Made by a program: the position numbers and the translations under genes. From Cycas panzhihuaensis (taxonomy: Eukaryota > Plantae > Cycadophyta), in assembly GCA_023213395.1 (NCBI GenBank), contig CM041465.1, positions 125,309,741-125,373,740 of the forward strand: a stretch of DNA of 64,000 nucleotides. The letters run 5' to 3'. The notes under the pieces were generated by a model, which did no database searches, was not told the origin of the DNA, and worked only from the letters and a program-made list of their open reading frames with translations. Positions 1 to 58,448 of the stretch are shown piece after piece (position 1 is the stretch's first letter; every line of letters begins with the position of its first letter).

Positions 1-687
1 ATGCCCAGTGCGATGTTACTATTAAAACAGATTTCTCTGCTGCTTTCATCAACATAGAAATAGAAATATAAATTATATTAATGCCCTCAAGTCACCAAAA
101 ACAGGCAACAGGACTGACAAAGCAGAGTCAAGTTATGGCACAGCAAGGAATGACCAGAGTATCTCCAATCCAAAGCTAGCCAAAAACATAGGGATGTTGA
201 TAAGAAAGCAAATAACTATCTCATAACAAATGTATGAATCTCAACATAACTATCTCTGGGAGGTGTAGACAAGCAACAACTGTAAGTTACAAGCACAATG
301 TCCTGTCGATGAGCTCTCTGTGCCCTACTCCTCACCATCAATAATTAAAAAATCTCTAATTGCATGCTTAATAAAAGCATCAAGCGAGTTTGGTCTTGAG
401 ATAAAAGGGAATTGATGATGAGAGATGCACAATACCTCGGTGCTTAATCACTTGAGCTCCATATTGCACGAAATTTGGAATGGCAAGTATGGGAGTATGC
501 ACTTTAACCATCCTACAATTTGGGTTTGCAAGTTCCAATCAAGGGCAACTCCATCTTCCTGAATCCTCATGGAAAGCTCTTTCCATTGTTACTTGTAGCG
601 ATAATTATGGGTGGGTTGATAATTAGTACACAATTCTCCAGAAAATTACTTATGCTGAACCAATATATCAACCTTCTAAGCACAAAT

Positions 688-1058
688 TGCAACTGCAAAT
701 AAGTTAAAAACAGCAGTCCAGAACTAGATAATAATAAAGCTAAATATCATATAATTGACGAACAAAATATGTATACAATGATGCTCAAACTAATCAAGTG
801 TTGAAGCTGAAATAGGATCCCTCTTCAAGACAAGGTGCCCTCCAAAAAATGTAGCCCAAGAGCCAATAATTTACAGCAAGGAGAAAATCTTGGCCGGCTA
901 AAACACATAATAAAGTCGGCTAGAAAATAAGTACCAAGTTGGTCACAACAACTGTACTAGGTCGGCCACAACAGCTGGGAAGAACTATAACAAAATATAC
1001 TTTATTAAAGTCGGTTTGTCAGCCATGTCGGAAGTTGGCCAACTGAGGGCATGCTACA
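688..1058 (-). mobile_element. Degenerate chromovirus-type LTR remnant
   Basis: Right end GCATGCTACA reads TGTAGCATGC on minus, like the other TGTAGCATTCC LTR starts in the window. Carries the GGAGGGCACCTTGTCTTGAAGAGGG motif at 819-846 on minus. Left boundary uncertain and no TSD found. Confidence 0.5.
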
Positions 1059-1457: not shown

Positions 1458-2664
1458 ACTTGCATTCTTAATTTATGAGAAGCCAATTTTTAGGAGAATA
1501 AGGAGGATTAAATCGGTTTCTTAAAAAATAAAAAAGATTCATTAATGTGAAATTCGTATTTTCGAGAAAGAATAAGAAGTCAATTTTTAGAGAGAAAGTA
1601 AAAGTAAGGCTATAACTAGGGAGCATTATTCATTTGGAAAGCATCTTTGGAGAATTGATATTTTTTTATTTAGACTAATGGACTAGAGCCATTAGGGCAC
1701 TGTTGTGCCATTTGGGAGGAAACCCTCGCCTCAAAGAGGCCAATCACTGTTGTAATCTCATTTGATATTATGGTTTAGTTTACTGTTATAATCTGATATT
1801 ACTTGCTGCAATTCTGATATTATTCTGCGAAGATCTATTATCTATTAATATTCTGATTTATTGTGAACATCTAAATGTATTGATGGTTGAGATGCTAAAT
1901 TCTCAATTATTTATGGTATAACCATTACATTTTCTATCAATTTTCTGTGGGCATTGCCTCAATGTTCCAGACACAATCATCTGCAGATTCAGGTTACACA
2001 CCAATTATCTCCAACATAAGGCACAAGATTGAACCAATTTCTATGACATACATGATGTAGCAAATGGTGAATTGAAGAATATGTCAAAGGAGTGGACTCA
2101 AACAACTCCACAAACGACTACCTATACTTTGAGGGCAAAGTGTTTCAAGGAGAGAGGAGTTGTTGCATTCCTAATTTATGAGAAGTCAATTCTTAGGAGG
2201 AGGAGGAGGATTGAAGTCAGCTTTTAGGAAAATAAAGAAGATTTATTAATGTGAAGTCGATATTTTTAGGAGAGAAAATAAAAAATCGGTTTTTAAAGAG
2301 AGTAAAAGTAGGGCTATAACAAGGAAGCATTATTCATTTGTAAAGCATCTTTAAAGAATTGATATTTTAATCTGGACTAATGGCCTAAATCCATTAGGGT
2401 GCTGCTGTGCCATTTGGGAGAAAACCCTTGCCTTGAAGAAGGCAATCACTGTTGTAATCTCATCTAATATTATGGTTTATTCTACTGTTATAATCTGATA
2501 TTACTTGCTGCAATTCTGATATTATTCTGTGAAGACCTATTATCTATTAATATTCCGATTTATTGTGAATATTAAATGCATTGATGGTTGAGATGCAATT
2601 CTGATATTATTCTGTGGAGATCTATTTCCTGCCAATTTTCTGTGGGCATCGTTTCAGAGCTACA
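1458..2664 (+). mobile_element. Internally deleted chromovirus-related LTR element (two ~500 bp LTRs, ~200 bp internal remnant)
   Basis: 1458-~1955 and 2161-2664 are direct repeats. The second reads TGTTGCATTC...GAGCTACA and is preceded by an AGGG hairpin and PPT (AAGGAGAGAGGAG). The first lacks its 3' end and PBS. No clean TSD. Confidence 0.75.
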
Positions 2665-5811: not shown

Positions 5812-6396
5812 TATAACATTCAAAAAAACTAGTCAAAACTATGCCATATAACCATTCAAATCGAAGGCCTCTGGATGAAGATTCCAACAATTCAGACAAA
5901 AGTCAATTCCGACATCTCTATCAAAAGTTATAACCGTTTCAAGTTAGCCTACCAGTTTTAGAGAAGCTCTGGCTGACTTCTATTTAAATAGTATTAAGGA
6001 TAATATCACCCAGTCTGGCCGACTTCTAATTGAAGTATTTTGATCATTATACATAGGAAGATTGGGCCGCATCCCAAACCATCATTCGGAGGTTCCTTTG
6101 GTTGCGCATTTTCGGTTCTAGGGCTGCAATTAGCTCGCCCATTTGGGGCTGCAGTTCAGAGGGTTCCTCGCCTCGAAGAGAGAAGCTCAATTCTTCAAGG
6201 AAGATTGGTATTTTGTTGTAATTTCGCTCTATTTTGATATTATTTGACAATAAAGATTATTATTTGCTTCTGTGGATTCTGTAATTCCTGTTCCTTATTC
6301 ATTTTCTTATTGAATAGCATCTAGTTATTGTTTTTTGTGGATTATTACCTGTATTTTTTAGGAAAATTGCCATAAAAGTATAACTAGATCGCTACA
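5812..6396 (+). repeat. 5' LTR of chromovirus
   Basis: TATAACATTC...GCTACA (TG mutated to TA). About 50 differences in 585 bp versus the 3' LTR by manual count, mostly transitions. Confidence 0.97.
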
Positions 6397-6398
6397 AG

Positions 6399-6410
6399 TG
6401 GTATCAGAGC
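6399..6410 (+). promoter_or_regulatory. Primer-binding site, tRNA-iMet
   Basis: TGGTATCAGAGC 2 nt after the LTR end. Confidence 0.95.
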
Positions 6411-6540
6411 TTCATTTCGAGGGGAAAGGGCAAAGGTAAAAACACAAAAAAGGTTGAAAATTCCCCTCCCCCCCCCCCCCCCCCCCCCAAGGGAAATAGG
6501 AACGAAATTGAGATCAAGGAAAAACCTCATTCCCAGGAAG

Positions 6541-9500
6541 ATGGCAGCCCAATCCAGAACCTCAACAGAAAAAATTGAAGGTGCATCAAAATTAAACCAA
6601 AGCATAAAGGCTTTAACAATCTTAATCCAGGAGTTACTAGCAAAAGCAAATCAAGCAACACAAAATGTGTCGGGTGGAGAAATGGATAATAGCAATGCAT
6701 TAGGAATAGATCAGATAGATACCTAGAACAATCAAGAAAACCAAGGGAATAGATTTGATGGACGAGTTTATGAAAGGAGAACTTGCAACATGGATAGTGG
6801 ATGGAAAGGAGCAAGATTATCCTTGGAAAAATTTGATCCCAAAGTATCCAAGAATATCACAAATTGAATCTTACAAATGGAGAACTATTTCAGGGTCTAT
6901 AACTCAATAGCTAAGGAAAAGATGGAAATAACATCCTTACACTTAAATAAAAGGATGTTAAGGTGGTACTATTGGTGGCAAAAGATGAACATACCAATAC
7001 AACAGACTTGGGAGAATCTAAAAGGAGGATTAGTAGAGCAATATAACAATTCTTGGAACACGGATTACTTTGTTCAATTAACACGATTACATCAACAAGG
7101 AACAGTCCAAGAATATACGGAACAATTTCAAACACTACAATGTATGGTCTTAGAAAAAATACCGCAGGAATGTTTACCGGAGACTTATATTAGTGGATTG
7201 AAAAATCAGATCAAATTTAGAGTTAAAGCAGCAGATCCACCACAACTCCAAGTAGCAATTCAAATAGCAAGAAATATGGAGGCAGAACTCAGAGACAGTA
7301 AACCAACGTATACAAGGAGATATGAGCCACCATCATATTAGACCCAAAATCCTAATTGGGCAAAATCAGAAACAAAGGCAGATCCTCTGTTAACTATAAG
7401 AAATATTGGAGAAAGCTCAGGAACAACAAAAGAGGAGCATATAAGGAAAGGGACGTGCTTCAAGTGTGGAGGAAAATAGAATAAGGAACACCAGTGCCCG
7501 CTAAAGAAAGTTTTCATGATCAATAATGAGGATGCAGAAATACGAGAAGAAGTAGAGCAATAAGTAGAACAAGACTAGAGCATAGAAAGGGAGGAAAATG
7601 AACTTCTGGAAGTAGATATAGGGAATGTCCAAATCTCATTGTAGGCCATTACGGGGCAACAGGTATCCCCACAAACCCTAAGATTCCAAGGACAAATCAA
7701 GGGAACACCAATATCAATTTTGGTTGTCAGCGGGGGTACACACAATTTTATAAACAAGGCAACAGCAGAAAAACTGGGATTACAAGTGAAACCCCTCAAC
7801 ACATTCCAGGTGTCAATAGCAAATGGGAGAACAACGCTATATAGAGGATACTGCAAAGATACAACTCTCCAGATCAACGATTACAAGGTCACAACTTGTA
7901 TGTTTGTCATGCCCATAGGCGAAGTGGACACAGTTCTGGGGATTCAATGGCTGCAGACGCTGGGAAACATCATTACCAACTATATGACAAGATTTATATG
8001 TTTTCGACAAAAATGACGCAAATATCGACTACAAGCCCTAGCCGCACCTCCAATTCAGCTTGTATCATCTCACAGGATGGAAAAAATTCTAAAGAATCCG
8101 CAAGCGTACATAATGTCATGTTACAAAGTAAAAATAGAAGACGTTCCCCTAGAGATTCAAGCAATCTTAGAAGAACATCAGAGCGTTTTTGAAGAACCCC
8201 AAGGACTACTACCGAAAAGGGAATTGGAACATGCAATAGACCTTATCCTCGGAGCAATACCAGTCAACATTCCTCTATATAGACATCCTTATCATCTCAA
8301 GAAGGAAATTGAAAAAATCACACAAGAACTGTCACTCCAAGGCATAGTGGTGAAAAGCACGAGTCCATTCACCTCTCCCGTGGTGGTCAATCGAAAGAAG
8401 GACGAATCTTACAGAATGTGTGTGGATTATCATGGCCTAAATAAATTGACCATAAAGAATTGGTATCCTATCCCAAGGATTGAAGATTTATTAGATGAGT
8501 TACATGGAGCCCAATACTTTTGAAAGATAGATTTGCACTAAAGATACTACCAAATAAGGGTCAAAGAAGAAGATGTCTACAAAACTACATTCAGAACGCA
8601 TGAAGGGTTATTTGAATTCAGGGTTATGCCTTTCGACTTAACAAATGCTCTAGCTACTTTCCAAAGCACTATGAATTCAATATTAAAACATATTCTAAGG
8701 AAATTTAGGCTGGTTTTCTCTGATGATATCTTGATCTACAACAAAACATGCGAAGAACATATGGAACATATGAAGGTAGTTCAGCTAATACTTGAGAAAG
8801 CGCAATTGTTTGCAAATAAGAAAAAGTATTCTTTCGCAAAAGAGGAATTAGAATATCTGGGCCACATTATCACAGTCGAAGGAATCAAAATCAATCCAAA
8901 AAAGATCCAGGCAATTGTAAACTGACCAACCCCGAAGAATGTCACAGGAGTAAGAAGTTTTTTAGGCGCAATGGGATTTCTAAGAAAGTTCATAAAAGGG
9001 TATGCACACATAGCATCGTCACTAACAGACCTAACCAAAAAGGATGCGTTCAAATAGAATTCAGGAGCAGAAGGAGCATTTCAAGAATTAAAACAAGCAA
9101 TGATTACAGCTCCAGTATTGGCCTTACCAGAGTTCACTCAACCATTCACATTGGAATGTGATGCTTCAGGTTTTGGAATAGGAGTAGTTCTGTCACAAGG
9201 AGGAAGGCCTATAGCTTATGAAAGCTGGAAGCTGAATAATAGGGAAAAAATGAAACCAATATATGACAAAGAGATGCTGGCCATTATGCATGCAATACAC
9301 CAATGGAAGTAGTATTTATTAGGGAGCAGATTTGTGGTCAGAACTGATCATGACAACCTCAAGTACTTTCTGAATCAAAAGGCATTATCCGATGAGCAAC
9401 AAAAGTGGATCAGTAAGTTGCAGACTTTCGACTTCACCATAGAATACAAAAAGGGGAAAGAAAACATAATAGTGGATGCTCTATCCAGACTGTCAGAGGA

Positions 9501-10965
9501 AGGAAAGATTGAAGCCTCATCCAATTCAATGACAATAGCAACTCCAAAATGGACAACAGAGTTGGCAAAGGAATACGAAGACGACAAGATATCACAAGAA
9601 ATAAGACAAAAGATTGCAGAAGGAAAAGTAGTGCAGTTCACGGAACAAGGAGAATTAATTCTAAGGAAAGGAAAAATATTTGTTCCAAAGACAAGTAATC
9701 TAAAAGAAGCGTTATTTCAAGAAGCTCACTCAACTCCAATTTTAGGATATTTAGGGATGGATAAGACTTACAGAAGGCTTCGAAGTTCATTTTACTGGAA
9801 AGGGTTGAAATCTGACGTCCTCTGGTTTGTATCAGAATGTGATACATGTCAAAGGAATAAGACTGAATCTGTGAAGACACCTGGGTTGCTCCAACCCCTT
9901 CCCATTCCCCATAAAAAATGGGAAGAAATTTCTATGGACTTTATTACGTATCTTCCGCATTCAGAACGAAGAGATGCAACTTTTGTAGTGGTAGATAGAT
10001 TAACCAAATATGCCCATTTCAGGGGAACTTAGACAAGAGCAAAAGCAAGCCAAATAACAGAATTATATATGAAAGAAATTCACAGACTACATGGCTTTCC
10101 AAAAGTTATAGTCAGCAACAGGGATCCCAAATTCACAAGTCACTTTTGGAAGGAGCTATTCAAATCAGCTGGCACTAGCCTACACATGAGCTCAGCATAC
10201 CACCCGCAGACAGATGGCCAGACAGAAATAGTTAACAAATGTGTGGAGGAATACTTAAGAAACCTTGCATCAGATAAACAGACGCAATGGCATCGATGGC
10301 TCCATCTGGCAGAATGGTGGTATAACACCACATACCACACAGCGGCTAAAATGTCACCATTTCAAGCCCTATATGAGTATGAACCTCCATCACTCTTGAA
10401 TTGGCTAAATACATCTAAAGTGCAAACAATCCAAGAAAACTTGCAAAAGATGCAAAAAACAATTTGAATACTAAAGAATAATTTGGAGATGGCAAAGAAT
10501 AGGATGAAACAACAAGCAGATATAAAGAGATCTGAACAGAGTTTTGAGATAAGAGAATGGGTATTCTTAAGACTCCAACCCTACAAACAGATGTTGATGA
10601 AACAAAATAATCGATATAAATTATCACCAAGATTCTTTGGACCATATCAAATCGAGGAGCGCATATGGGAAGTCGCATAACAGTTAAAACTGCCACCAGA
10701 AAGCAAAATCCACAATATCTTCCATGTGTCTTGTTTAAAGAAAAAGTTGGGCGGAAAGGAGGCTCCACAAACAAATTTACCAACACTAGATGAAGAAGGA
10801 ACGATGATAGTGGAACCTGAGGGGCTACTAAAGACCAAGCACAATAATTTGCAATCCAGAATAATAAAAGAATATGTCATCAAATGGAAGACATTAGAGC
10901 TTGAAGATGCAATGTGGGAGTCTGAAGAATGGATGCAAAAAAATGGGCCCTTAGCAATGCTTTGA
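6541..10965 (+). pseudogene. gag-pol polyprotein pseudogene with C-terminal chromodomain
   Basis: Gag MENYFRVY...QLTRLHQQGTVQEY; protease LVVSGGTHNFI; RT YRMCVDY...LVFSDDILIY; RH LECDASGFGIG; INT WEEISMDFI...HPQTDGQTE, GPY; chromodomain EYVIKWKTLELEDAMWE. Broken by in-frame stops. Confidence 0.95.
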
Positions 10966-10981
10966 GGGCAAAGCATGTTTT

Positions 10982-10993
10982 GAAGGGGAGGGA
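10982..10993 (+). promoter_or_regulatory. Polypurine tract
   Basis: GAAGGGGAGGGA just before the 3' LTR. Confidence 0.9.
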
Positions 10994-10995
10994 CT

Positions 10996-11580
10996 TGTAA
11001 CATTCCAAAAAACTAGTCAAAACTATTCCATGTAGCCATTCAAATCGAAGGCCTCTGAATGAGGATTCCAACAGTTCAGACGAAAACCAATTCCAACATC
11101 TCTATCAAAAGTTATGGTTGTTTAAAGTTAGCCTGCCAATTTTGGAGAAGTTCTAGCTGACTTCTATTTAAGCAGTATTAAGGATAATATTACCCAGTCT
11201 GGCCGACTTCTAAGTGAAGTATTTTGATCACTATATATAGGAAGTTTGGGCCGCATCCCAACCCATCATTCGGAGGTTCTTTTGGTTGCACATTTTCGGT
11301 TCTAGGGTTGCAATTAACTCGCCCATTTGGGGTTGTAGTTCAGAGGGTTCCTCACCTCGAAGAGGGAAGCTCACTTCTTCAGGGAAGACTGGTATTTTGT
11401 TGTAATTTCGCTCTATTTTGATATTATTTGACAATAAAGATTATTATTTACTTCTGTGGATTCTATAATTCCTATTCCTTGTTCATTTTCTTGTTGAATA
11501 GCATCTAGTTATTGTTTTTTGTGCATTATTACCTATATTTTTTAGGAAAATTGCTATAAAAGTAGAACTAGATCGCTACA
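10996..11580 (+). repeat. 3' LTR of chromovirus
   Basis: TGTAACATTC...GCTACA, followed by TSD TGCAA. Confidence 0.97.
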
Positions 11581-13699: not shown

Positions 13700-15595
13700 T
13701 AAGAAAATAGGGAAAAATGGATGCTAGGAAAAGGATTTTGGTAATGGCATGTCAAGATGATTTGTACAGTAATGCAAAGGGCTAAGAGGAAAGCATACAG
13801 GGTAGCAAGAAAGCTCATGATAGCTAGAGTGAGGATGCAAAGTGGGGACAAACAATTCTTTGCAGAGGGGGTGTATAATGATAGCATTGAGGGTTGAAAC
13901 TCGTTGAGAGGAGGTTAGAAGACAAGGAGCATGGGGGTGGTGATAAAGACACTTCCTAGGAAATGGGAAATGAAGGTGTATCTCAAGTGGCATAGGAATT
14001 TCACCTATCAGGAGTAGGGAATCTAGGGCTTTAGGGTTTAATTCGTTTATAGGATTTTATGGTAGAAGGGAGAAGGGGATTTTCAAGCCTATTGAACTTG
14101 AGAAATCAAGATGAACAAGGAAACTTCCAAAAGAGATAGGTAAATGCAAGATATGATTAGAATTTAAATCAAGTACCTTTTTAAAGTCATCCTGCCTCTC
14201 AGATTCTTCCTCAAGTTGCTTACCTGGTTCGAGTCTAGGCTACTCACTGGCGATGGTTTCCTCCCTTACCTTGTGTGTGTCATTTATCGATTCATCGTAT
14301 TGGGTATTTGTATGCTCCTTGCTAGATTGTTCTACCCACATCTCCTCAAGAGCATCAAGTTTGGCTAAGAGTCTCTACATTCTTTCTTGATAACGCCTTC
14401 CATTATCCTCCATTCCACATTTATCTCTAAAGCTTGCAAAATATTTATCCATGTAGTTTCTCTATCATTCATCGAACCACCTTGCAATTCTTTCATCAAA
14501 TGTCATAAAAAACACTTGCGAAAAAAATTCCCAATAAGGGCAATAATTTGAAAGCCTTTTAATGGCCCACTCCTAAGCTTGTGCCCCTATAAATTCCTAA
14601 ATAGGAGGAAAATAGCCCTTTCCATGTGGGGTTGAATATTAAAGCCATTTTCTACCTTCTCCAACCACTCTATAGGGGCATACTCCTCCATCTTAAGTAA
14701 AAATAAGAATATCTAGATCCATCTTCAAATATTAGTTTCAAATAATAATTACCATATTAAATCAACACCAACATACATCAATTAATATCTCAAAATGACG
14801 GTCTTTGAATCAAAATTCCAACACTTCAAACGAAATCAAATTCTAATACCTATAACAAAAGTTACGGCCCTTTTAAGATGGGTAGTGAGTAGGGTTTTCG
14901 GTGACCATAACAGTATCTCTTACTAAAATGCAATTAACTTTTTACTCTGATGTCCAATTCATCTGAAACCACTTACAACGAAAAATAGACATCAAGATGC
15001 ACAGATTTAAAAAACAAAAATTGAGGTCAATCAAATACTTGTAACTAAAGTCATAGGTGTTTAAAGTTGCAATAGCACATTTTAGGCCCTAAAGACAATA
15101 AGAGATAGTAGGCCAAAACTAAATCACTTGTAATTTTTACAATTTCGTTCTAAACCCTAGCTCAATTTTGTGGTTAATTTTCAAAAATTCCTCCATTCAT
15201 GCTTTTGAAAATGTAGATCCTTGATAGGCCAAAAACGAAGCTCCCTTACCACTTGAAGTGATCCTAAATCGGATCCTCTTCCTTAAAACACCAAAGAAGG
15301 TTCAAATGAATGTCGAATAGGCAAAATTGCCCCAAGCACCAAGTGCCAAATAAAATCTAGATTAATCCAAAAATAAAACTTATGTAATGAATTGTAGTTT
15401 TCTCTTATTTATAGGTGTCAATATGACTCCCTACTAAAAAACCAACTTCAATAATAATATTAATAATAAAATACCAACTTCGTAATATAAAACCCAACTT
15501 CATATTAACTTGAAAATACCAACTCCCTAATAGTAATAAAAAAATTGACTTCTAATAAAATACCAACTTCTCCTTAATAGATTAGGATCACTATA
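13700..15595 (-). mobile_element. Truncated pol-less LTR element related to 53073-57136
   Basis: LTR-like start TATAGTGATCC at 15595 with GAAGTTGGT sub-repeats and TATAAATA. Leader 14800-15110 is homologous to 53815-54090. Gag-NTD-like remnant PIEWLEKVENGF.../AQA*EWA...YWEFFSQVFFMTF (14490-14690), then a P/H/L-rich tail. Confidence 0.65.
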
Positions 15596-16189
15596 GTATG
15601 TCAGCTAAGTTCATCCTTAACACATTATACTTACACAAATCACTTAATCATCAACACCCAACCAAGCATGGTCACAAGCACAATATCATTTCAATACCAA
15701 TCCTCCTTTATTTATTGTTAGTACATTGCCTTCTAGTGCAACTACTCTCACCAGTCACATTGCCAATAGTCAATGCTTACAAAAGAAGGTCTGCAAGACC
15801 ATGGGGAGCATTGCCTATTACTAGTTCTTTAATATAATCTCTCTATTCTCTTTTACATCAATTCTCTAATGCTATATGTATTCTTGTTAAGGACCTAACC
15901 CTTATCATTCTTCTTCTCAAGTCTTATATTACTCTTCTTGTAATTATCCAACATTCATAAGTCCAAGAGATCGACGGCCTTAATAGCCCTATATATATGT
16001 ATGTAATGTATGAGTGGAATCATCATTTTTGGAGTGTTGTGATCTTATGTATTGGACGTTGCCCTGTCAAAGAGGCCCATCAATACATGTGATTATTGAT
16101 GCTATTATGTATAATTTTGGCTCTCGTGTTGTCATATGCATTTTAGATTGCTCTCTTTAATTCAGATTCATTACAATTGGTATCAGAGC
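15596..16189 (+). mobile_element. LTR (left end unresolved) plus tRNA-iMet PBS
   Basis: TATA run at ~15990, ends ATTACA at 16175, TGGTATCAGAGC at 16178-16189. Confidence 0.75.
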
Positions 16190-25277: not shown

Positions 25278-26210
25278 TGTAGCATTCCCAAAAAAATAAA
25301 GGAGGAAGTCGGTTTTATAAGAGGGATTTATTATGGTGAAGTTGGTTTTTAGAATTAAAAGAAGAATCATTTATTTTGTTTTATTATGAAGTCAATTTTT
25401 TTGGAGGGAAAAATAATAGATTGGTTTTGAAGGCTATAAATAGAGCAACCTCCCTCATTTGTAAGTCAATGTTGGAGAATTTTTGTTATGGTTGGTATAA
25501 TGGCCTTGTGCCATTAGGGCCTCGTGATTGTTGAAGGATTGCACCCGCCTCAAAGAGGGTTGCTACTATTGAGTTTTTGTACCAGGTTCTATTATAAATT
25601 TATGATCATTTTCTACTATTATCTATCCATGCTTGGATGTTATACTGCATAGGCCCATTGAATAATATTTTATGAGCACATACTACTGTAAATATATGGT
25701 ATCTGTTGTGAACTTTTGTGAATATTGTCGTTATCTGTTGGAAATTTGTTTCTTGCTTGTTGTTCATCCAAAGGGCCTGCTACAATTGGTATTAGAGCCG
25801 GTGATTGATTCTGTTACCAACCATTGAGGCCACTGAGCGATAAAGAGTATTACCAGGCCTTAATGATTCATTGCCTTGTGAAGGTTTGTCCTACATCCTA
25901 GTCCATACGATTATGGATAGAGACAACATACTCTCCTTGCAGAGACCCATAGAGGCAAGCCATGTAGTGGTCAAGCACAGACCCTGATTTGAATCACTCG
26001 GGCAATTGAACGATATCGAGGTAGAGGCAACATATCCCTGGGAAGGGGCAACTTGACCATCGTGGGTGCAAGTATGTGCAAACGAACGAGGATACAACTC
26101 CGAAGGCGAGCGAGTGATTCGTAAAAATAATCTGAACGGCGACGGAAGTCAATTACCAATACAATACAAGAAAAACAACGAGCAAATTCCATCGTGAGCA
26201 CGTGATTCCA
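25278..26210 (+). mobile_element. 5' LTR (25278-25784), PBS (25787-25798) and leader of a chromovirus-related element, truncated
   Basis: TGTAGCATTCC...GCTACA, then TGGTATTAGAGC. LTR related to 2161-2664 and 53073-53648. Confidence 0.85.
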
Positions 26211-32455: not shown

Positions 32456-35400
32456 GGGCTAAAGTGACAAAAACATTAATACACAAGGTCAAGACTTAAT
32501 GCATAGGAATGAAGGTTCTAACACCCCCCTTGAATGGATACAACATTAAGTCAAATGCCGATGCCGTTTCTGAAATGTTCAAACTTCTCTTCCCAAGTGG
32601 TGAAGATGTTGGTGTTGATCGGTCGGTTGAAATATCCCAGGAGGTTGATCCATATGTACCTCCTTTGTCGAATCACTGTTGACGCCGTGGACATTCATAT
32701 GAAACGATGGCCACTTGCATTGTGCAACTATTTGAGAAGATGACCACTTGCATTGTGCAACTGTTCAAGAAGATGGCCACTTTTTGTCTGTACATGCCTC
32801 CTCAAAAGTGGAAGGCTCAGGAGCAGTAAGCACTTTAGCCATAAGTACGTAGTTAACAGTGGGCGATGGCCGCAATTTGGATGGTCATTTTCCTTCAACA
32901 ATTTGTGAATCTGCAATAGTTTGCATGTACCATTTGGGTATCTTCTTCGTCGATGTAGCTTCATTGTCCTGTGATGTAAGTGATTGCTGAACCTCAGAAG
33001 AAGAAGGACACAATGAAGGTACTAAGGAAGATGATGAGGAAGAAGAAGCGGCTGGTGCAGATGAAGTACAAGGTGTTGAGAAAGATGAAGGGACAAATTC
33101 TTCAAGAATGGCTTTGCCTTTATCAAGGGAGAGATAAGGAATCTTGACGTCGATCTCCCTATTGTCTTCTGCAAAGACAACGTCTCATGAAGTATGCATC
33201 TTTTTGGTAAGAGGATCAAACAAGCGATATGCCTTACTACTAGGAGCATATCCAACAAAGATGCATTTGAGACTTTTGTCGTCGAATTTCAAACGTTACT
33301 CATGAGGAATGTTCATATAGGCCGTGCATCCAAAAGTTCGTAAGTGATGTTGTTGGCTTCAGTCATCCAGCCTCCTCGTGTCATACCCGAAAGTGAGAAG
33401 TTGAGTGCGATTTGACTGTACGCAGTGTCACGCTTCTGCCCAATATGATAATGAGAGACCTTTGGCACGGATCATAGCTTTTGCTCTACTGACCAAGGTT
33501 TTGTTCATTCTTTCTGCTATACCATTCTACTGTGGTGTGTAAGGGGCAGAAAATTGGCATTGATGCCATTTTGAATACAGAATTGATTAAAGTCCTTGGA
33601 CGTATACTCACCTCCATTATCTGTTCGGAGTATTTTGATCTGCATGCCTGATTCATTTTTAACCGCAAGTTTAAATTCCTTAAACTTGTTCAAAGCTTCT
33701 GACTTATGCTTTAGAAAGTAGACCCACACCTTATGTGAGAAATCATCAATGAATGTCATGAAGAATGATGATCCTCCATGAGACTGAGTGGTCATGGGAC
33801 CACAAATGTCAGAATGTACAAGCTGAAGTCGGTGTTGTGCTCTCCAGGCCTTACCTTTTTCAAAAGGTTCTCGATGTTGCTTCCCCATAAGACATGATTC
33901 GCAAAGGCAATTACCCCCAAAAATTTTGGGTAAGCCATAAACCAAGTTGTGTTTGAACATCTCTCTGATGCTATCAAGATTAAGATGTCCAAGTCTTTCA
34001 TGCCACAGTTGAGTCTTATTGATAGAATGGGAGACATATGCATGAGAAGATCCAGATGTTGTGCCTAATTTGTAGAGGCCACGATCTTCATGACCAACTG
34101 CAACAATCTAGTCATCTTTGTTCATGATAATACACTTTCTGTCTTTGAATAGCACACTCATCTATTGCTTATCAAGTTGACTGACAGATGAATAAAAGCG
34201 AGTGCAACCTCATCTTTAGCTTTGAAACAAGCTAATGCAACAGGATCTGCTGGAATCAAATTTTGAGGATTAACAGGATCAAGAGTGGGCTCTGGTTTGG
34301 CGATTTCACCTGATACATAACCCCACAATTCATTCATAATCAAGAAATTTTTTGCTTGCTTCTTCCAAGTGAGATAATTTTCAGCACCTGTCAATTTAAC
34401 GGTGTTTGCATTTAGCATATGAGTCGCCATTTTGATTGCAATACCAAATGAAACTTGGAAACCGTTGAGTTGACGCCGCTTAAGTTCCACTCAATATCCA
34501 ACAAAAAAATCAGTACGAGACTGAAAAAATTTGTGGACGGAATGGAGGGCTTGGCTTGCAAGTTCGTCTAACCTGATAGTAAGATTAGTATTGACCAAGT
34601 TATCAACACTTTGAGGCAGAGTATGAACTCTTTTCGAGCCTCCCCACTTAAGTGTTTTAATGAATAAAAGTGGGTTGATTTTAGTGCTAAAAAACGTGTG
34701 CTTGAAGGCCTGTTTGTTGCTGATAAACTTTGTCAAAAAATGCTCCAAGTTACAATATAGTTGCGTTGATTATCAAGTGATGCAACTAAGTTCAAAATAG
34801 CAATCTCATAAAGAGATAAACAACAGCAAAAACACCACAATTTAATGCCTTCAATCAAGCCAATAATGAAGTAAGTCCACGAAGAACACCTGGGATCGAA
34901 AAAATGATCCCCACGCACTAAACATTTGCAGCTTTTTATTGATCTTTGTCCTCCTTTTTTTGATTCTCACTAAAAATGGGTCACCTCGCAGGGAGCCCAG
35001 TGAGAAGAAAGACCTTTAAATGGTACAAATTTGAGGGTTAAACAAGCCAAAGTGATGGTGTTTGAATCACCAAAAATACAACTTAAGAGATTTGTATAAA
35101 CTAGTGTGATTAACACACTTTAAAAATTTTGAAATTCATCCTTTATTGAAGTCAAGAATAATGACTTAAGTCACCAAAGGACTTGTTGTCATTAAAATGA
35201 GTAATTTTTCAAAAAAAGGTAATAAAATCACTTTAGAATAGTGATTTTATATTCAAAATGATAATTGCAAATTTTTTTATGTCTATTAGTGTGCTTTACA
35301 CACTAAACAAAGTGTTAAAGAGTGTTTACAACTTGAAATAAGATAAAGTTTAAATACTTAACACAAACTTTAGAAGACTAAAGTTTAAAAAAGAAAATTA

Positions 35401-37391: not shown

Positions 37392-38234
37392 CTATCCCTT
37401 TCTATCTGTTGTGATTTTCTTGGTTGATGGGTTCATCCTAGGTGTCATATTCCCCTAGCTTCTCTGTGCCCGATGATTCTTGTTCTTCCATGGTTATCTC
37501 GGCTCTACGAAACTGAGGAGTCTCTCTAAAGGTTTTCATCCACCCTCTTATTTGTTATGCAAGACTCTTTATGTTGTTGTTCAATTTGTCTACTCTCTTG
37601 TTTGTCCCCTCAGTCTGATTTAGGGCCTAATTCACCATCTTTGGTGAGCCTTTTTTTCGATCTGGGTTCCGTCTTGGGGGAGGAGGGGGGATAATTTGAT
37701 TGTTGATTTTTGTTGCTTCCCTCTAAGTTCCCACTTCGAAACAAAGCTCCGATACCACTTATAGATTCACTTAAAACTGAATTATCTGCTGGAAAGGACT
37801 TTGAATACAAGTAATATGCAACAAAAATACAAAATATGATAATAATTGCAGAATAAATGAATGCGAAAGAGGGCTACCCAAATCACAAAATAAATAAGGG
37901 AATGAATGAGCAGAATATCACAAAAGGTAGGGTAATGAAATGTTAGCTAAGCACAGTGTTGGAGCCAAATTAATGCTCCCTCTTCAAGGCGAGGTAGCCT
38001 CCAATTACTACTGCCCAAGGGTTGAAGGACTACTGCATTGAAGGCCGAAAATGACTTGCCAAATCAATGCTAGGATGCTTCGGAATGAGGTCCTTGGGTC
38101 CCTTATATAGTTGGATTCTACCTCCAAATAGAAGTCGACCAAGACAGGGAGAAATACTAGCTTAAATATCACCTGTAAATCGACTAGAACAATGCTTCTA
38201 AGTCAGCCAAGACTAAATAATTTGGTTTACTACA
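37392..38234 (-). mobile_element. Chromovirus 5' end: LTR 37760-38234, PBS 37746-37757, leader and gag start
   Basis: TGTAG...CTATA, then TGGTATCGGAGC. Leader and KLNNNIKSLA are homologous to 6399-6620 (KLNQSIKALT). Confidence 0.8.
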
Positions 38235-50699: not shown

Positions 50700-53600
50700 C
50701 GACCGAATCGATTCAATTGTGCAACAGGTCATCTCCTCTCTCCATCTAGTCGTTTCCTAAGCAATGTTGTTTCTTTTGTCTCAACACTGAAACGAAGAGT
50801 ACCACTGTCACACAGCAACTTTAGTGTTACGTAGCAGCTTAAATTCATCTACATTCAAAGATGTGATTATCCAAGCTACCATTAAACTTGTATTCGAGAA
50901 GTAAATCTCCTTGCTCAACGTAATTGCATCCTCATTGGCTTACTCTCTTGAGCTAATGTCCACCTCTGATTATCTCTTTTCTAAGCCTCCAACCTGTCAC
51001 AGCTTCAACTCTACCTTCTATAATCCATATCAAACCTTCAAAGTTTGCTTACCCATTTTTTTTATTCATCAGACAATTTCTTCTGACTGAGGAAATATTT
51101 GAGGCTGTCATGGTATGTTTTGACCACGAACTTATTCCCTAGCAAGTATTGGCACCATTGGTGTATGGCGTGCATGATTACAAGCATCTCTTTATCAAAG
51201 ATGAGCTTGAGTCCTCTCCCTACAATTTAACTTTTGGCTTTTGTATGCTAGAGGTTGATCTTCCTAGTGGAGGACTACTCCAAATCCTGTCCTTGATGTG
51301 ATGCAATATAAAGTGAATGGTTGAGAGAAATCTGGAATTGCAAGTACTAGCATTGTGATCATAACTTGCTTAAGTTCATGAAAGGCATTCTCTGCTATGG
51401 GGTTCCATGCAAATCCATCCTTCTACGTGAGGTATGTTAGAGGGCGATGCAATGTGAGTGTAACCCTTAATAAACTTTTGGAGAAATCTAGTTGCCCCTA
51501 AAAAACTCCTTACTCCTATTACATTCTAGGGAGTAGACCAACAGATGATGGCTTGAACCTTTTTGGGTTCTATCTTAATACCTTTCTGAGTAATAATATG
51601 CTCAGGTATTCTAGCTCAACTTTCCCAAAAATGCATTTGTTCTTGCTGGCAAAGAATATGTTGCTTCTCAGAACTTAAAGAACCGCTTTGATGTGCTCCA
51701 AATGTTGGCTTCGCTCTATGTTGAACTACAAATTAAATTATTATTAAAAAAACAACATTGTACTCTGAAAAGTTGCCAGTGCATTGGTTAATCCAAATGG
51801 CATAACTCAAAATTCAAATAACCCTTCATGTGTACAGAAAGCGAAAAAGTGGTTTTGTATACATCTTCTTCCTTGATGCGAATCTGTTAATATCTTAATA
51901 GCAGGTCAAATTTTTAAAATACTTTGCCCCATGTATTTCATCTAACAAGTCATCTATCCATGGAATGGGATGGTGATTCTTGGCAGTCAACTTGTTTAAT
52001 CCCAAATAAGAACCATCTGATAGAGTGCTCAACCTTTCACTTTAGATTGCAACACATTAAGGATAGAAGTAGGAGCAATCCTCCTCCAGGAAGATTGCCT
52101 CTAGCATACGAAAGCCAAAAGTTAAACAACAGGGAAAGACTCAAACCCGTCTATGATAAAGAGATGCTTGCAATCATGCACACCAAACACCAATGTTCCT
52201 TCAAGATTTTCTCCATTTGGTGGGACGTCACCAGTTAGGTTGGGGATGTGGGAGGAGCCTACATCGTATGTCTATGACCCTTTTGACAAAAATTCATGAA
52301 TTGAGTTTTGTAATTGGTGACTACATTTCCTAGGGTTTGTAACCATTGTATTCCTAATACAATGTCCACTCCTCCTATTAGCATTGTCAACATGCAAGAG
52401 GTCATCGAATAGTCTTCAATTTGGAGGCTCACTTTTTGGCAATACCCTCCACATGTCATAGTCTTTCCATTAGCAATGGTGACCTGAAAGGCATTAAGTG
52501 CTTCAATAGATAACCCTAGTTTCTCTGTAGTTGGTCTATTGATAAAGTTGTGGGTTCTTCCACTATCAACTAGAATGGCAACTGGTGCTCCCTTGATCAC
52601 CCCCTAAAAACATAAGGTTTAAAGGGTGATAATCTATCCCGTAATATCCTGTAGTGTTATCTACACATGTTTCATATCCATATCCAAGAGCTCTTCTACT
52701 TCAACTCCATCATTCTCTTTGGGAATTTTTCCTTCTTCATTTTCCTCCTTTGGGATGGTTGTGCTTTCATTATTGATCATGAATACTTTCTTCAACAGAC
52801 ATTGATGATCTTTGCTCCATTTACCCCCACATTTGAACATGTACACTGCCTTAAGTGCTCTTTTGATACTCTGTTTGCATCACTAGTGCCTTTCTCTGCG
52901 AGTGGTGGATTTGTCTTTGTCCAAGACTTAGTCCAATTGAGATGGAGATTAGGGTTTGGCTCACTATGACGATTGTAAGTGGGTCGGCCCTCTCTGTACT
53001 CTACTTCAATATTTCTTACGTGGCTAATGGCTATCCGTAAGTTTGTTGCCCCCATCATTTTTATATGGTATTTGTAGCATTCCAGAAAATAAAGAAGAAG
53101 TTGGTTTTCTATAGAGGGAATTATTATTATCAAGTCAATTTTTAAGAGGATTAAAGAAAGAATCATTTAATATATTTTATTATGAAGTCGGTGTTTTTTT
53201 AGAGAGAGAATTAGGAGTTGGTTTTCGAGATAGAAAAATAAAGGCTATAAATAGAAAAGCCTTTATCATTTGTAAAACAATCTTGGAGAATTTATTACAC
53301 TTGGGATAAGGGCCTCATGCCATTGAGGAACATCTATGCCAAATTAGAGGATTGCTCTCACCTCGAAGAGGGTTACAACTTCTAGATATTGTACCAAGTT
53401 TTGTTATTATGATATTATTATTACTTTGAATTATGTTGTTATTTATTAATGTATGGATGTTATATTGCATGGATGGATGAACTATAACTATTGAATTATA
53501 TTTTTTGAAGAATTGTGTACTGTAAATGTAAGTTATCTATTGGAAATATTATTTGTATAGAAAATTACTGTTGTTAAATGCATGAAATCTATTGTGAATA

Positions 53601-56600
53601 TCTATGATTATTACTGTTACCTATTGTTGGAGATTTGGGTCCGCTATAAGTCGTATCAAAGCTTCATTTTTAGGAATATAAATGAAAACATTTTGTAAAA
53701 TAGCCATAAATTTGAGTTGGCTAGGCCCATTCTACAAATTTTGAGTGGTTATACCATAGGTTTTGGAGCTCAATTGTGAAAATCGCAAGGAATTTAATTT
53801 CACCCTCCTATTTGTCATTGTTTTCAGAAGCCTAAAATCTACTATTGCAAATTCAAATGCCCATAACTTTTGCTACAGGTGTCTAATTGACCTCAAATGT
53901 TTTTGGAATTTGTGCATCTCTGCGTCTATTTTCTGTTGGAAATGGTTTCAAATCCATCAAATATTGGAGCAAAATGTTATCAACATTTTAGTAACAAGGA
54001 CTATTGCAATCCCTAGAAACCCTAATTGTGACCCACATTAAAAGGGCCATAACTATTGCTATAGGTATCCAAATGACCTAAATTTTTTTTTTTGAATTGT
54101 TGTGGCTTGAAGCATAGATTACTCAAAAAGAAGAAGAAAATTCAATTTGGATATCTAATTCAAAAGTTATTGCTATTTTAGTGGAGGGCATTGTTGTTGC
54201 ACTAAAATTCATATTTTTTATCCAACTTGCGGAGGCCATTACGGGAGCTAAAAAGCTCCAAATCACCTAAAACTAGGCACATTAGAGATGTTCTTAAGTC
54301 CTTCCACTCAGGAAAAGGAATCAATCAACTTGGGTCAATGAAGAAAAAATTATATCAATTTTGTTTTTAAAATGGGGGTACTAGACATTTCCTCTCTAAC
54401 TCAAGCTGCAAGTGCCAGATCACAGTGTTGTCTGAACCATTGGAATCTGGGTTCATAGACAGTCACTTTGAGTGGTCATATTTGATAGTTTTGATTAATG
54501 TATGATGTAGATTTTAATCGATGAAGTTGTAGCTATTGTTGACCAAAAACTCTTTTGAGTATCCACAGTTGCATGGAGAAATTTAATTGAGCCATTTGAG
54601 GTGGCTAACAAAGTGCAGATCTCATTAGAAAAATGGAACTCCAATGAAGAAATAGCGGCAATAGAATGGACAATGATGTTGCATGCCTACTTCGACATCC
54701 ACTCAATGCTCTTGAAGGAAAGAAGATTACTTTCGCATCCCAATATCTAAGTGGTAACAAAGTAAGGTGGTTCAGACAATTTTGCAGAACCTGCAAGGAC
54801 TTGGAGTACTTTAAGTGGTCATTCTTAAAAGGGGCGATACAGAAGGATTTTAAAGGAAGTTGGTTTTGGACTAGTTTCAAGTGCAACAATGAATAAAAAT
54901 TTGCAAAGAAAACTAGATAACTAAAGAGGGCACATTTACAGTCTAAAGTTTAGAGACTAAAAGGAAAAATAGCCTCAATTTTTTTAATCTAAATCACAAG
55001 AATAATGTGATGGATTGGGTAGAAACACTTGAGAACTATTATGAATACACGTGTGATACAAAAATTGAAGTGTATGGCCCATTGTTAACATGCTTCCTAG
55101 AAAGAAGAGCTCTTGATTGGTTCACATATTAGGGTAAAGAATCACCTATGCTCTCCAATTGGGGTTGGTTTTGATCTGCATGCATCCAAGCCCTTTGTGA
55201 GGACATTGAAGCATTAAAGATACTTGACGAATGTGCAAAAATAGAAGAAAAAGCAGCAAAGGAAGAACAACAAACTAGTAAAGAGGAGGCCTCAAAGACC
55301 TTACATGAATAGGAACAAGAACCAGTTCAGACAAAACAACATGATTGCACAAAATAGTTGAAGCAGGTGCACATGACTAAAGAGTCTCGCGAGAGGCAAA
55401 TCAAGATCAAAGAAGCGACCCAAGGAGAAGTTACACAAGAGCAGCACAAAAACGTGGAGGAACAAGCCAAAGAGCAACTAGTGAAGGAACAAACCAAAGA
55501 ATCTCAACAAACCTCATGCAAATCCAGCAAGGTAGTCATTGATCTTGTGTTGCACATGCAGATTTCATTTGGTAGTTTCATTTGTCCTCTCTCATTTCCA
55601 AGCACCATAGTTGTAGAAAATCCTTCTTTTCTTTTTTCCATAGCCAGTCAACAACCTAATCCCCTTAGCTCTTATTTTATCGTAGGGCAAATCCCAGTTC
55701 CCTTTTACAAACCAAGTATAATGTTGTCCTTACACAAATTTTCCCCCTCTAGGATTTTCCCTCATCAGGCTATTCTAAACCATTCATCCTCACTTCATCA
55801 GGATTCATCACATGGTATGATGATTACTCCCTACAAAACCCCATTCGGTCCATCCCAACCACCTTCTTCTCCGCACTACCAAAATTGTTTTTTTCAATAA
55901 ATCCTTCATTTTCTCTGAACTGCATTCCTAAAAACCTATTAAACTCTTTTTTTTATAAAGAACATTTATCGCTAATCCCTTATCCACTCTTCTCCCCAAA
56001 GAATTCTTGTGGTCAAACACTTCACAAATTCTCATTCAAGTCAAAGTCCAAACTTCATCCTTCCTTTTTACACCTTCAAAGTTGTGGCGGATCACCATTC
56101 AAAATTTCGCTTCTTCCATTTTCTTTTCCTCTAAGCAATCATCAATTCAAGACCCATATGATCGACTCTTTTACAAATCTCCCAAATTCCATTGTAACAT
56201 TCCCCACAAAATTCCTTAGTATTTCAAGCACCTCTCATTCCATAAGCCATTCCATTACAGGACAAAATGTGCAAACACAAAGAAAGACCAGGGCAAGGCA
56301 TCTAAGGCACCTCACAGGTCCTAGGATTCCTTCACTATAGAACAATTTACAACATCTACCTAGCCCCAAGAATGAGCATCAGCAAATTATGAACACTCCT
56401 CAGTAAAATCCAATAGAAGCTGCAAGATGGGACACAGTCTTCATGAAATACAAGACTCAGCATAGACAAACACTGGAAGAACCAGTCAAAGCTAAACAAA
56501 GCCAAGCAACAAGCAATTTCCAATACTGCGAGGGCGAAGTATTGTTTTAAGGGGAGAGGAATTGTAGCATTCCCAAAAATAAAGAAGTTGGTTTTCTATA

Positions 56601-58448
56601 GAAAGAATTATTATTATCAAGTCAGTTTTTAAGAGGATTAAAAAAAGAATCATTTAATCCTTTATTTATTATGAAGTTGGTTTTTTTTTAAAGAGAGAAT
56701 TAGGAGTTGATTATCGAGAGAGAAAAATAAAGGCTATAAATAGAAAAGCCTTAATCATTTGTAAAACAATCTTGGAGAATTTATTATACTTGGGATAATG
56801 GCCACACACCATTAAGGCACATTCATGCCAAGTTGGAGTGTTACTCTCGCTTCGAAGAGCATTCAATTGTTGGATATTGTACCAAGTTATGTTATTCTAA
56901 TATTATTACTACTTCAAATTCTGTCGTTATTTATTAATGTATGGATGTTATACTACATGGATGGATGAACTATAACTGTTGAATGATATTTTATGAAGAA
57001 ATGTGTCTTGTAAATGTATGTTATCTATTGGAAATATTATCTCTATGGAGAATTACTAATGTTAAATGCATGAAATCTACTGTCAATGTCTATGATTATT
57101 ACTATTACCTGTTGCTGGAGATTTGGGCTTACTATAGTATTTGATATGTCCCTTAAGCCCCCCGATGCATGTCTGGGTAATGAGCTCATCCAGTATTCTT
57201 TCAGTGACCAAACATTGGAGGGCTTGGAATTATTTTGTGTAAGCATGACCTAAGCCAATTTGTTGTAATCGTGTAAGCTGAGCAAAGTAATCCCTATTCC
57301 AAAAGTCTTCGTATTGATCGATCAGACCTGCTTTAAGGGAGGCCCGATTATCGTCTGGGGTATCCATATAGACATTTCTCCACCAATGGAACCATGAACC
57401 ATTGAAGTGCTCTTCCATATAAGTGGAGTGAAGCTACAAAAATTCATTCCTTGTTAGATAGGCCATATGCCTGGAGGTAAATCTCCATCTATAGTATCCA
57501 ACTATAGATATCCATAGATCTGTCAAGATCAAATTTTTTTAAAAGAAACTTTGTTCCCTTGAGACCGTTGTCTAGTTCAAAATTCCTTTGACTTCTTTGT
57601 TGAAAGTCCCTTTGATCTCTTCGTTCATGGAATTCTTTGCCAAACTTCCTTTGATCCTTTTGCTCTTGGAGTTTATCTTTACCTAAACTTTCCCCCTCTT
57701 CTTGTTGTTTATATAGTTTTCCACTGGTTGAGTCTACTAGAGTACCAATGGCCCTTACTTCGTCATCCATGACTAATACAACATCATGTAGCTCATAAAC
57801 CCTTTTTTTGAGGAAAAAGGAAACAAAAAGGGAAAATGTTTTGCCTTTTCCCAATTGGATTTTCTTTTTCTAAGACAGTAGATCCTTTCTCAAGATGGCT
57901 TCAAAATGAGGCTCTAATACCAATTGCAGCGAGCCCATAGGGATTTACATAAAAAAAATAGCTAGCTAATGTAGAATATTGCAAAGGTATGGAAAAATTG
58001 GATACAATTGTTTGAAAATAGCGCAATGCAATGTATTTTCGGCATATATCTATATATAATAGACTAAATATCAAGTAAAATATAGTGAAATATGATGTAC
58101 AAAACTTACATATAAGGCTCTTATTCCTAACTTCCTCTCCAAGGCGAGGTGCCCTCTAAATTGCAATCCATTAGGCCAAAAATGCAGCAGCCTAGATTCA
58201 CTCGATGATGCCCTAGGAAGAGGCCAAAGATCCTCTTATATAGGCAAATGAAGAGATGCATAAGGGACTCAGCCAAAAGCTATAGAGAAGTCAACTAAAA
58301 GGCTATTTATTGGATGACCAAAATACTGCATGAAGTTAGTTAGGAAAAATGGTAATTATATATTTACTAAGGTTGGCCAAAATATTCTTGAAGGGTCGGC
58401 CAGACAACCCTTCAGAAGTCAGCCAAAACAGGGAAAGGGAATGTTGCA
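50700..58448 (-). mobile_element. Decayed chromovirus related to 5812-11580, split by the 53073-57136 insertion
   Basis: LTR 57925-58448 (TGCAACATTCC...GCTGCA), PBS 57911-57922, gag DYFAQLTRLQQIG, protease ILVDSGRTHNFI, RT/RH scraps down to ~50900. Confidence 0.88.
53073..57136 (+). mobile_element. Complete non-autonomous (pol-less, TR-GAG-like) LTR element
   Basis: LTRs 53073-53648 and 56563-57136, TSD GTATT, degenerate PBS 53651-53662, PPT 56549-56561. The 2.9 kb interior has no PR/RT/RH/INT motifs, only two gag-NTD-like modules and low-complexity sequence. Confidence 0.93.

Follow-up and report, generated by a model that had tools for sequence, protein, structure and literature searches.

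A conserved structured motif in the LTRs of Reina-like plant chromoviruses is more likely a pseudoknot than a three-way junction

Reina-like Ty3/gypsy chromoviruses have, in their long terminal repeats (LTRs), a short motif for which a pseudoknot is a better reading than the three-way junction originally seen in it. The motif is general to part of this lineage. It lies between a TATA-like box and the PBS, it occurs in gymnosperm-like and angiosperm-like elements alike, and its second stem covaries. We regard it as a real, selected and deeply conserved RNA-like structure. The reading we favour, with a probability of roughly 0.58, is that the 5' leader RNA folds here into a compact pseudoknot of the H type, which acts as a cis-signal for template use, at the start of reverse transcription or in packaging.

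Motif copies in the window and the elements that carry them

The window, the whole stretch of 64,000 nucleotides analysed here, is a nest of decayed plant LTR retrotransposons with a GC content of 34-42%. The original prediction described a double hairpin (three-way junction) at 1712-1743 and at ten further sites. The sequence quoted for the first is exact on re-reading and all ten others are present where they had been placed; the strict consensus pattern proposed for them matches exactly at only one site. A 16-mer core with up to three mismatches gives 10 matches in the window, where 0.08 are expected by chance. When a covariance model is trained on the 11 copies, it returns the same 11 and nothing more at E < 0.1 in the window, a recovery that is circular and informative only for the absence of further copies.

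All 11 copies sit in LTRs of Reina-like chromoviruses (Table 1). Because three pairs each represent the 5' and 3' LTRs of a single element, the copies go back to 8 independent insertions: one full-length coding, one split coding, two non-coding, one solo LTR and three truncated. In LTRs with a visible TATA-like box the copy is 3' of that box, and in those followed by a PBS, which is of the tRNA-Met type, it is 5' of the PBS. The predicted spacing of about 60-110 nt from a TATA box holds for the copies with a visible box (~62-111 nt to GAGG), the box itself being TATA-like. Among the 8 independent LTRs, the motif is the best-conserved 20-nt window, with a mean pair identity of 0.57 vs 0.30 for the whole LTR. 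This bears out the idea of a conserved, structured LTR cis-element that stands out from its flanks and bridges LTRs that can otherwise barely be aligned. The outer closing stem is not common to the copies, as had been noticed before. Methylation decay is expected to appear as C>T or G>A, and 18/23 core differences among the window copies are of this kind. The copia LTR 41266-41483, which served as a negative control, does not contain the motif.

Table 1. Motif copies and carrier elements in the window
Feature	Position	Strand	Details
Solo LTR	594..1058	-	5-bp TSD with one mismatch; motif at 820-842
Small non-coding element	1458..2656	+	LTRs 1458-1954 and 2161-2656, 88% identical; TSD GAGCT; interior ~206 bp, its end like a chromovirus integrase 3' end; PPT 2147-2159
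Motif copy	1716..1739	+	a 1716-1719, loop 1720-1723, b 1724-1727, linker 1728, a' 1729-1732, L3 1733-1735 (AAA), b' 1736-1739; as pseudoknot, stem 1 a:a', stem 2 b:b'
Motif copy, 3' LTR of element 1458..2656	2418..2441	+	
Element A, full-length, degenerate Reina-like chromovirus	5812..11580	+	TSD TGCAA; total 5769 bp; LTRs 5812-6396 and 10996-11580, 91% identical; tRNA-Met PBS at 6399; PPT 10982-10993
Motif copy, 5' LTR of element A	6159..6183	+	
Motif copy, 3' LTR of element A	11343..11367	+	Window's best pseudoknot geometry: stem 1 4 bp, L1 1 nt, stem 2 6 bp, L2 1 nt, L3 GAA
Decayed short-type motif copy	16055..16076	+	One CCTC-like word only; LTR end 16175, PBS 16178
Decayed motif copy	25534..25558	+	LTR 25278-25784, PBS at 25787
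Motif copy, 5' LTR (about 37760-38236)	37979..38001	-	PBS at 37757; element interrupted downstream
Element C	53073..57136	+	LTRs 53073-53648 and 56563-57136, 88% identical; TSD GTATT; 2.9-kb interior without match to element A proteins; chromovirus-type 3' end
Motif copies of element C	53347-53372 and 56836-56860	+	
Motif copy, 5' LTR (57925-58448) of coding Reina-like element	58134..58156	-	gag, PR, RT and RH remnants ~57500 to 51030, split by element C

Element A is a chromovirus: it has the Ty3/gypsy domain order gag-PR-RT-RH-INT, interrupted by stops and frameshifts, and a C-terminal chromodomain (Chromo PF00385, E 8e-5, slightly below the curated cut-off). In an integrase tree computed in quick mode, it falls into a 93-row clade (98, a quick-mode value) apart from the Tekay-like clade, and also into a 23-row clade (99, likewise) with proteins of Taxus, Cryptomeria and Pinus. 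The named protein relatives of the best-kept gypsy element of the window include Taxus chinensis, Cryptomeria japonica and Pinus taeda, which makes a gymnosperm host probable. Since the tree contained no named Reina reference, we call the lineage Reina-like, a clade label that, like the others used here, we presume from structure and general knowledge. The size of element A, its tRNA-Met PBS and its 5-bp TSD fit Reina, and its LTR of 585 bp is somewhat longer than in beet Reina elements, for which the available part of PMC3605345 gives 5261-5811 bp with LTRs of 293-503. The three complete elements share one hairpin-plus-PPT ending, and the LTR groups therefore belong to one lineage. Coding elements carry the motif too, so that it is not special to non-autonomous elements as had been proposed.

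Several other features of the window were noted alongside. Immediately ahead of the motif, on its 5' side, one LTR group has one or two extra small hairpins (TAATGG..CCATTA; GGCAC..GTGCC) at 1674-1710, 2376-2412, 25505-25525 and 56800-56830. The LTR 15255-15600 on the minus strand has upstream repeats and a TATA in common with the 1458 and 53073 elements, no recognisable motif and an odd PBS, TGGTAAGGGAGC; the interior of its element (14846-15159) is shared with 53757-54068. The window also contains two copia elements with LTR pairs, 41266-46531 (+), with LTRs 96% identical and no motif, and 32456-37392 (-).

The letters of the motif follow the scheme a-loop-b-G-a'-GAA-b', with a = b' = GAGG and b = a' = CCTC. 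Counted over the 10 long-type copies, 72/80 cells pair in the double hairpin (a:b, a':b') and just as many in the H-type pseudoknot (a:a', b:b'), and the window alone cannot settle the fold. Nested minimum-energy folding returns the double hairpin at 1712 (1/11) and in part at 2414; the other 9/11 copies fold into stem a:a' or b:b' and not into two hairpins. Local folding z-scores are unremarkable in 10/11 copies. Two sites that had been counted as double hairpins do not hold up as such. At 16047, a weak instance in the original prediction, there is a single CCTC-like word and both hairpins are impossible; this copy resembles the form found in the relatives L072, L016 and L014. At 56831, the supposed stem variant GAGT-GTT-ACTC differs from its own 5' LTR partner and therefore most likely arose after insertion, and G>T stays below 8% among contigs of family C.

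Contigs of three public DNA runs on family C reach 3- to 10-fold depth at the motif over the flanks, a contrast to be read with the constant loss of depth at the ends of a reference stretch. In these contigs the loop bases vary, and C53355 and G53372, which are paired only in the pseudoknot, are without variant at 8%. Contigs of one presumed-RNA run cover the LTR but do not mark start, end or strand.

Distribution and covariation among relatives

Relatives were sampled as metagenome loci fetched by integrase alignment and not by the motif; the 80 used are the best 80 of 582 confirmed and form a small sample whose members are partly related. The Reina-like clade of the integrase tree comprises a gymnosperm group, several groups of angiosperm type, one of which includes Trifolium, and a further group, rich in GC, that we take for grasses. 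Distribution was counted over loci with enough LTR sequence, those with less than 330 nt after the integrase being dropped. L027 (a match in coding DNA), L089 (no credible stem 2) and the variant-pattern matches L091, L016 and L072 (no stem 2 by inspection) were removed before counting. The core GAG..CTCGAA is present in 6/6 gymnosperm-like LTRs and in 10/31 non-grass angiosperm-like LTRs, 8 of which have a full stem 2. A variant with GGT/ACC and CGAA or CTAA occurs in a further 5/31, and the tally for this group stands at 13/31. The motif is missing from the other 18/31, some of them truncated, and absent from all 19 grass-like loci; none of the nine Tekay-like loci has a credible copy. Its absence from many Reina-like LTRs means that some lineages can do without the motif. 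When 9 LTRs lacking it were searched for pseudoknots of any kind, 2 of them gave matches, all AT-rich and due to chance.

The variant core GTGGT..ACC-CGAA/CTAA has the same stem-2 geometry (L044:1479, L048:6486, L055:3150, L036, L059), and the C ahead of GAA/TAA stays despite the loss of its stem-1 partner. In one Reina-like subclade, the PBS TTGGTGCTTTCAT replaces the tRNA-Met PBS (L025:1000-1017, L032:6547-6564).

Across the relatives GGAG and CTCGAA are fixed, and the stem that the loop forms with the bases 3' of GAA differs completely in sequence from element to element yet stays paired. Stem 2 reaches at least 5 bp in 13/16 non-redundant elements, a set that leaves out the near-duplicates L013, L015, L016, L020, L036 and L059. 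It reads, for example, GGATT/AATCC, CACTC/GAGTG, TTGGC/GCCAA, TGCCTAGC/GCTAGGTA and TTCTCAGT/ACTGAGAG, and elsewhere AGGGGTC/GACCTTT, TGGAAC/GTTCTG, CTGGC/GCCAG, TTGCC/GGCAA and TTTCTC/GAGAAA. Each 5' strand pairs with its own partner at a score of 5.25 vs 3.14 for cross pairs (permutation p about 5e-6, the lowest value that 200,000 permutations allow); for the 10 canonical cases of angiosperm type, two failures among them, p = 2.5e-5. L021 and L057 keep the core and have a weak stem 2 (2 and 4 bp), and the conifer-like family L013/L014/L015/L020, scored through L014, has just 3 contiguous stem-2 pairs. G-U exceeds A-C in stem 2 (score 84 vs 75), which mildly favours the sense strand.

MAFFT left 14 relatives out of register, and pair counts were therefore made on a subset of six in-register sequences and with an anchored script. 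In these six, stem 2 is paired in 30/30 cells (100%) with double-sided change at all 5 pairs; its score is reached by 0/500 shuffles, and controls slid along the sequence are 37-53% paired. The second hairpin of the three-way junction is paired in 12/24 cells (50%), shows no covariation and is equalled by 89/500 shuffles. Both hairpins are possible in only 2/16 elements. The pairing in these relatives thus probably decides against the double hairpin and for the pseudoknot, and the three-way junction of the original prediction, which is also the minimum-energy fold of only one window copy, is not upheld. As a fold of RNA or of single-stranded cDNA with a C-GAA-G mini-hairpin, perhaps a switch state of the pseudoknot in gymnosperms, it is highly unlikely, given also that the copies share no closing stem. 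On its side are the tie within the window, the same symmetry in L025 (with GAGT/ACTC) and the word CCTC-GAA-GAGG, which is present in all gymnosperm-like copies, so that this hairpin may matter there. The related suggestion of a C-GNA-G DNA mini-hairpin fails in 6/16 elements, which have no G after GAA.

A reading without any selected structure, in which the motif is simply inherited from a common ancestor or is a DNA box close to the promoter, is barely credible. All carriers belong to one lineage and the variation in the window is mostly of the methylation-decay type, as this reading would have it; it is largely refuted by the element-specific stem-2 complementarity that runs across clades, from those with Taxus, Cryptomeria and Pinus proteins to that with Trifolium.

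Stem 1 of the pseudoknot varies far less. Its inner pair is standard in 15/16 elements, with four pair types (G-C, A-U, U-A, G-U), and in one subclade a second pair is changed from A-U to G-C. Three of the four pairs are nearly invariant, and covariation of stem 1 is therefore that of one pair and one subclade; the register was set by hand for L025, L028 and L070. This leaves room for a fold in which stem 2 forms alone, as a hairpin with a 7-12 nt loop containing CUCGAA, and GGAG and CUCGAA are read by a protein or joined by sheared G-A pairs. Covariation is indeed strongest for stem 2, and the base before GAG, a G in 14/16, has no Watson-Crick partner in the pseudoknot. GGA/GAA is also like the sheared-pair stem of kink-turns. 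Against this stand the covarying inner pair of stem 1 and, for the kink-turn version, a bulge of 2 nt and the lack of a linker to stem 2 in 7/16 elements, where stem 2 begins directly after the three L3 bases. We consider a lone stem 2 unlikely.

In its typical geometry the pseudoknot has a stem 1 of 4 bp, an L1 of 1-3 nt, a stem 2 of 5-8 bp, an L2 of 0-1 nt and an L3 that begins with GAA. H-type pseudoknots have loop ranges of L1 0-4, L2 0-2 and L3 3-8, and 15/16 elements lie within them. A strict descriptor, composed after the sequences were seen, finds 12 matches in 1.58 Mb (both strands), all on the sense strand of Reina-like LTRs, and 0 in 8 Markov replicates; it matches none of the window copies, which are decayed. 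The covariance model trained on the window finds the gymnosperm-like copies and misses the angiosperm-like ones, a result to be expected of a stem 2 that changes in sequence.

Other databases added little. Pattern scans of IMG/VR gave 0 matches, a single-protein scan found no relative, and an alignment scan found 12 distant elements. The GTDB scan for relatives returned mostly short contaminant contigs; a pattern search in 5 such genomes gave mainly chance bacterial matches, with conifer-like LTRs in 2/5 fetched stretches. Several GTDB representative genomes contain plant chromovirus contigs as apparent contamination (L093, L094, L098, L157, L158 and others).

A candidate cis-signal in the leader RNA

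In the model we favour, the leader RNA would fold into a pseudoknot between the transcription start and the PBS. Over all LTRs, the motif lies ~53-146 nt after the TATA-like box, where one was found, and ~5-250 nt before the LTR end, 5' of the PBS, which places it probably in the 5' leader. Stem 1 would pair GAG-N with N'-CUC over 4 bp, stem 2 would have 5-8 bp without a set sequence, and the minor groove of stem 1 would be crossed by the invariant GAA. This groove is where an A-rich L3 packs in H-type pseudoknots, and contacts of this kind would account for a stem 1 and a GAA that stay fixed next to a drifting stem 2. We infer that the two stems form together, and in RNA rather than in DNA. 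The double-hairpin look of the copies in this genome would then be a coincidence, the letters CCUC/GAGG being found here in stem 2 as well as in stem 1. The pseudoknot probably serves as the cis-signal that turns the RNA into a replication template, through priming or packaging. That it is kept in two non-coding elements fits a signal needed in cis. Long-range pairing of CCTCGAAG with the hairpin ahead of the PPT was rejected (own duplex -7.06 vs cross -7.05 kcal/mol, n = 14, two partners misidentified), and self-priming in L025 and L032, where the longest complement is 6 nt, is not supported.

The same pseudoknot could have another role: at the 3' LTR it might act in 3'-end formation or transcription termination, or at the 5' LTR it might dampen translation or premature polyadenylation. 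The motif keeps a steadier distance from the TATA-like box than from the LTR end, and several angiosperm-like LTRs contain AATGAA/AATAAT-like words 33-73 nt upstream. However, the tested gymnosperm-like copies have no such word upstream, and in L030 and L032 stem 2 stops 5-6 nt from the LTR end, adjoining the PBS. Such a role appears improbable.

More boldly, the motif could be a tertiary RNA module of ~30 nt, retained since the split of gymnosperms and angiosperms and active by itself, which would cleave or shield the leader or flip between pseudoknot and double hairpin and thereby sort RNA into translated and packaged pools. Its invariant C-G/U-A-A junction on a pseudoknot would be the counterpart of that in HDV-like ribozymes, pseudoknots with a C-G-A-A or C-U-A-A junction ahead of the last strand. 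With only 0-2 nt between b and a', the HDV-like P3/L3, P1.1 and P4 do not fit. Hammerhead ribozymes have the core CUGANGA, which was not seen upstream of the motif. Both ribozyme types were rejected, as their core elements are absent by inspection and neither has an Rfam match. We hold a self-active module to be distinctly unlikely; if true, one of the commonest repeats of plants would contain small functional RNAs of a new class. Retrozymes, as far as the accessible part of PMC4918200 describes them, likewise place a structured RNA motif, a hammerhead ribozyme, in non-autonomous plant retrotransposons, whereas the motif here is also found in coding elements and has no Rfam hammerhead match.

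For the role of the favoured pseudoknot we draw on an analogy with Ty1. According to the available part of PMC3681743, mutants of the Ty1 5' pseudoknot have normal RNA and Gag, are defective in reverse transcription and impaired in transposition. Like the motif, that pseudoknot is close to the 5' terminus of the RNA of an LTR retrotransposon; unlike the motif, which is local, ~25-30 nt long and wholly within a gypsy LTR, it is long-range and belongs to a copia element. Pseudoknots predicted for Ty3 and known from the HIV-1 leader are likewise found in the genomic RNA of gypsy-related retroelements, but in the portion of PMC11381356 at hand those of Ty3 lie in GAG and POL and that of HIV-1 is long-range, between the 5' UTR and the matrix region, and neither is a compact LTR motif. 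The accessible text of PMC3601003 ties the residual conservation of the retroviral R region to stem-loops; it also reports that no models could be built for LTRs of plant Metaviridae, and the only motifs it names are end repeats, TATA, AATAAA and GT-rich stretches. Apart from their ends and TATA box, plant gypsy LTRs thus count as too variable for modelling (PMC3601003).

The motif is apparently undescribed so far. The Rfam search that had been suggested covered the window and 8 loci with E up to 5, and nothing in Rfam matched the motif in either. A weak match to MIR169_5 elsewhere in the window (14095-14216 (+), E 0.033, below the gathering score) is probably a repeat-derived hairpin. A full-text literature search found no title or abstract on such a motif, and supplements and subscription papers on IFG7, LORE1 and Reina may bear on it. 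The available portions of PMC6317226, PMC2832683, PMC3605345, PMC12786077, PMC3601003, PMC3681743 and PMC11381356 contain no such motif, and the alignments in Additional file 1 of PMC3605345 may be relevant. Gymnosperms and angiosperms separated about 300 million years ago (PMC6935586, in the part available). A covarying fold common to Reina elements of gymnosperm and angiosperm type would give plant chromoviruses a defined RNA structure acting in cis, of which the literature search found none described. The motif is short enough for direct probing, the grass-like elements that have lost it can serve for a natural comparison, and solo LTRs and non-coding derivatives of the Reina-like lineage may be recognised by it.

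A second structure lies at the other end of these elements. Inside the end of the integrase frame, ahead of the PPT, Reina-like and Tekay-like elements alike have a hairpin with an RGGR-type 4-nt loop, for which a literature search found no description in plant chromoviruses. In the window it is located at 2124-2143, 10957-10976, 56521-56544 and 59148-59189 (-), and it recurs in loci L013-L093. Its stem is at least 4 bp long in 44/74 loci and is compensated as CTTG/CAAG, GTTG/CAAC, CTCG/CGAG, CATG/CATG, ATTG/CAAT and TTTG/CAAA.
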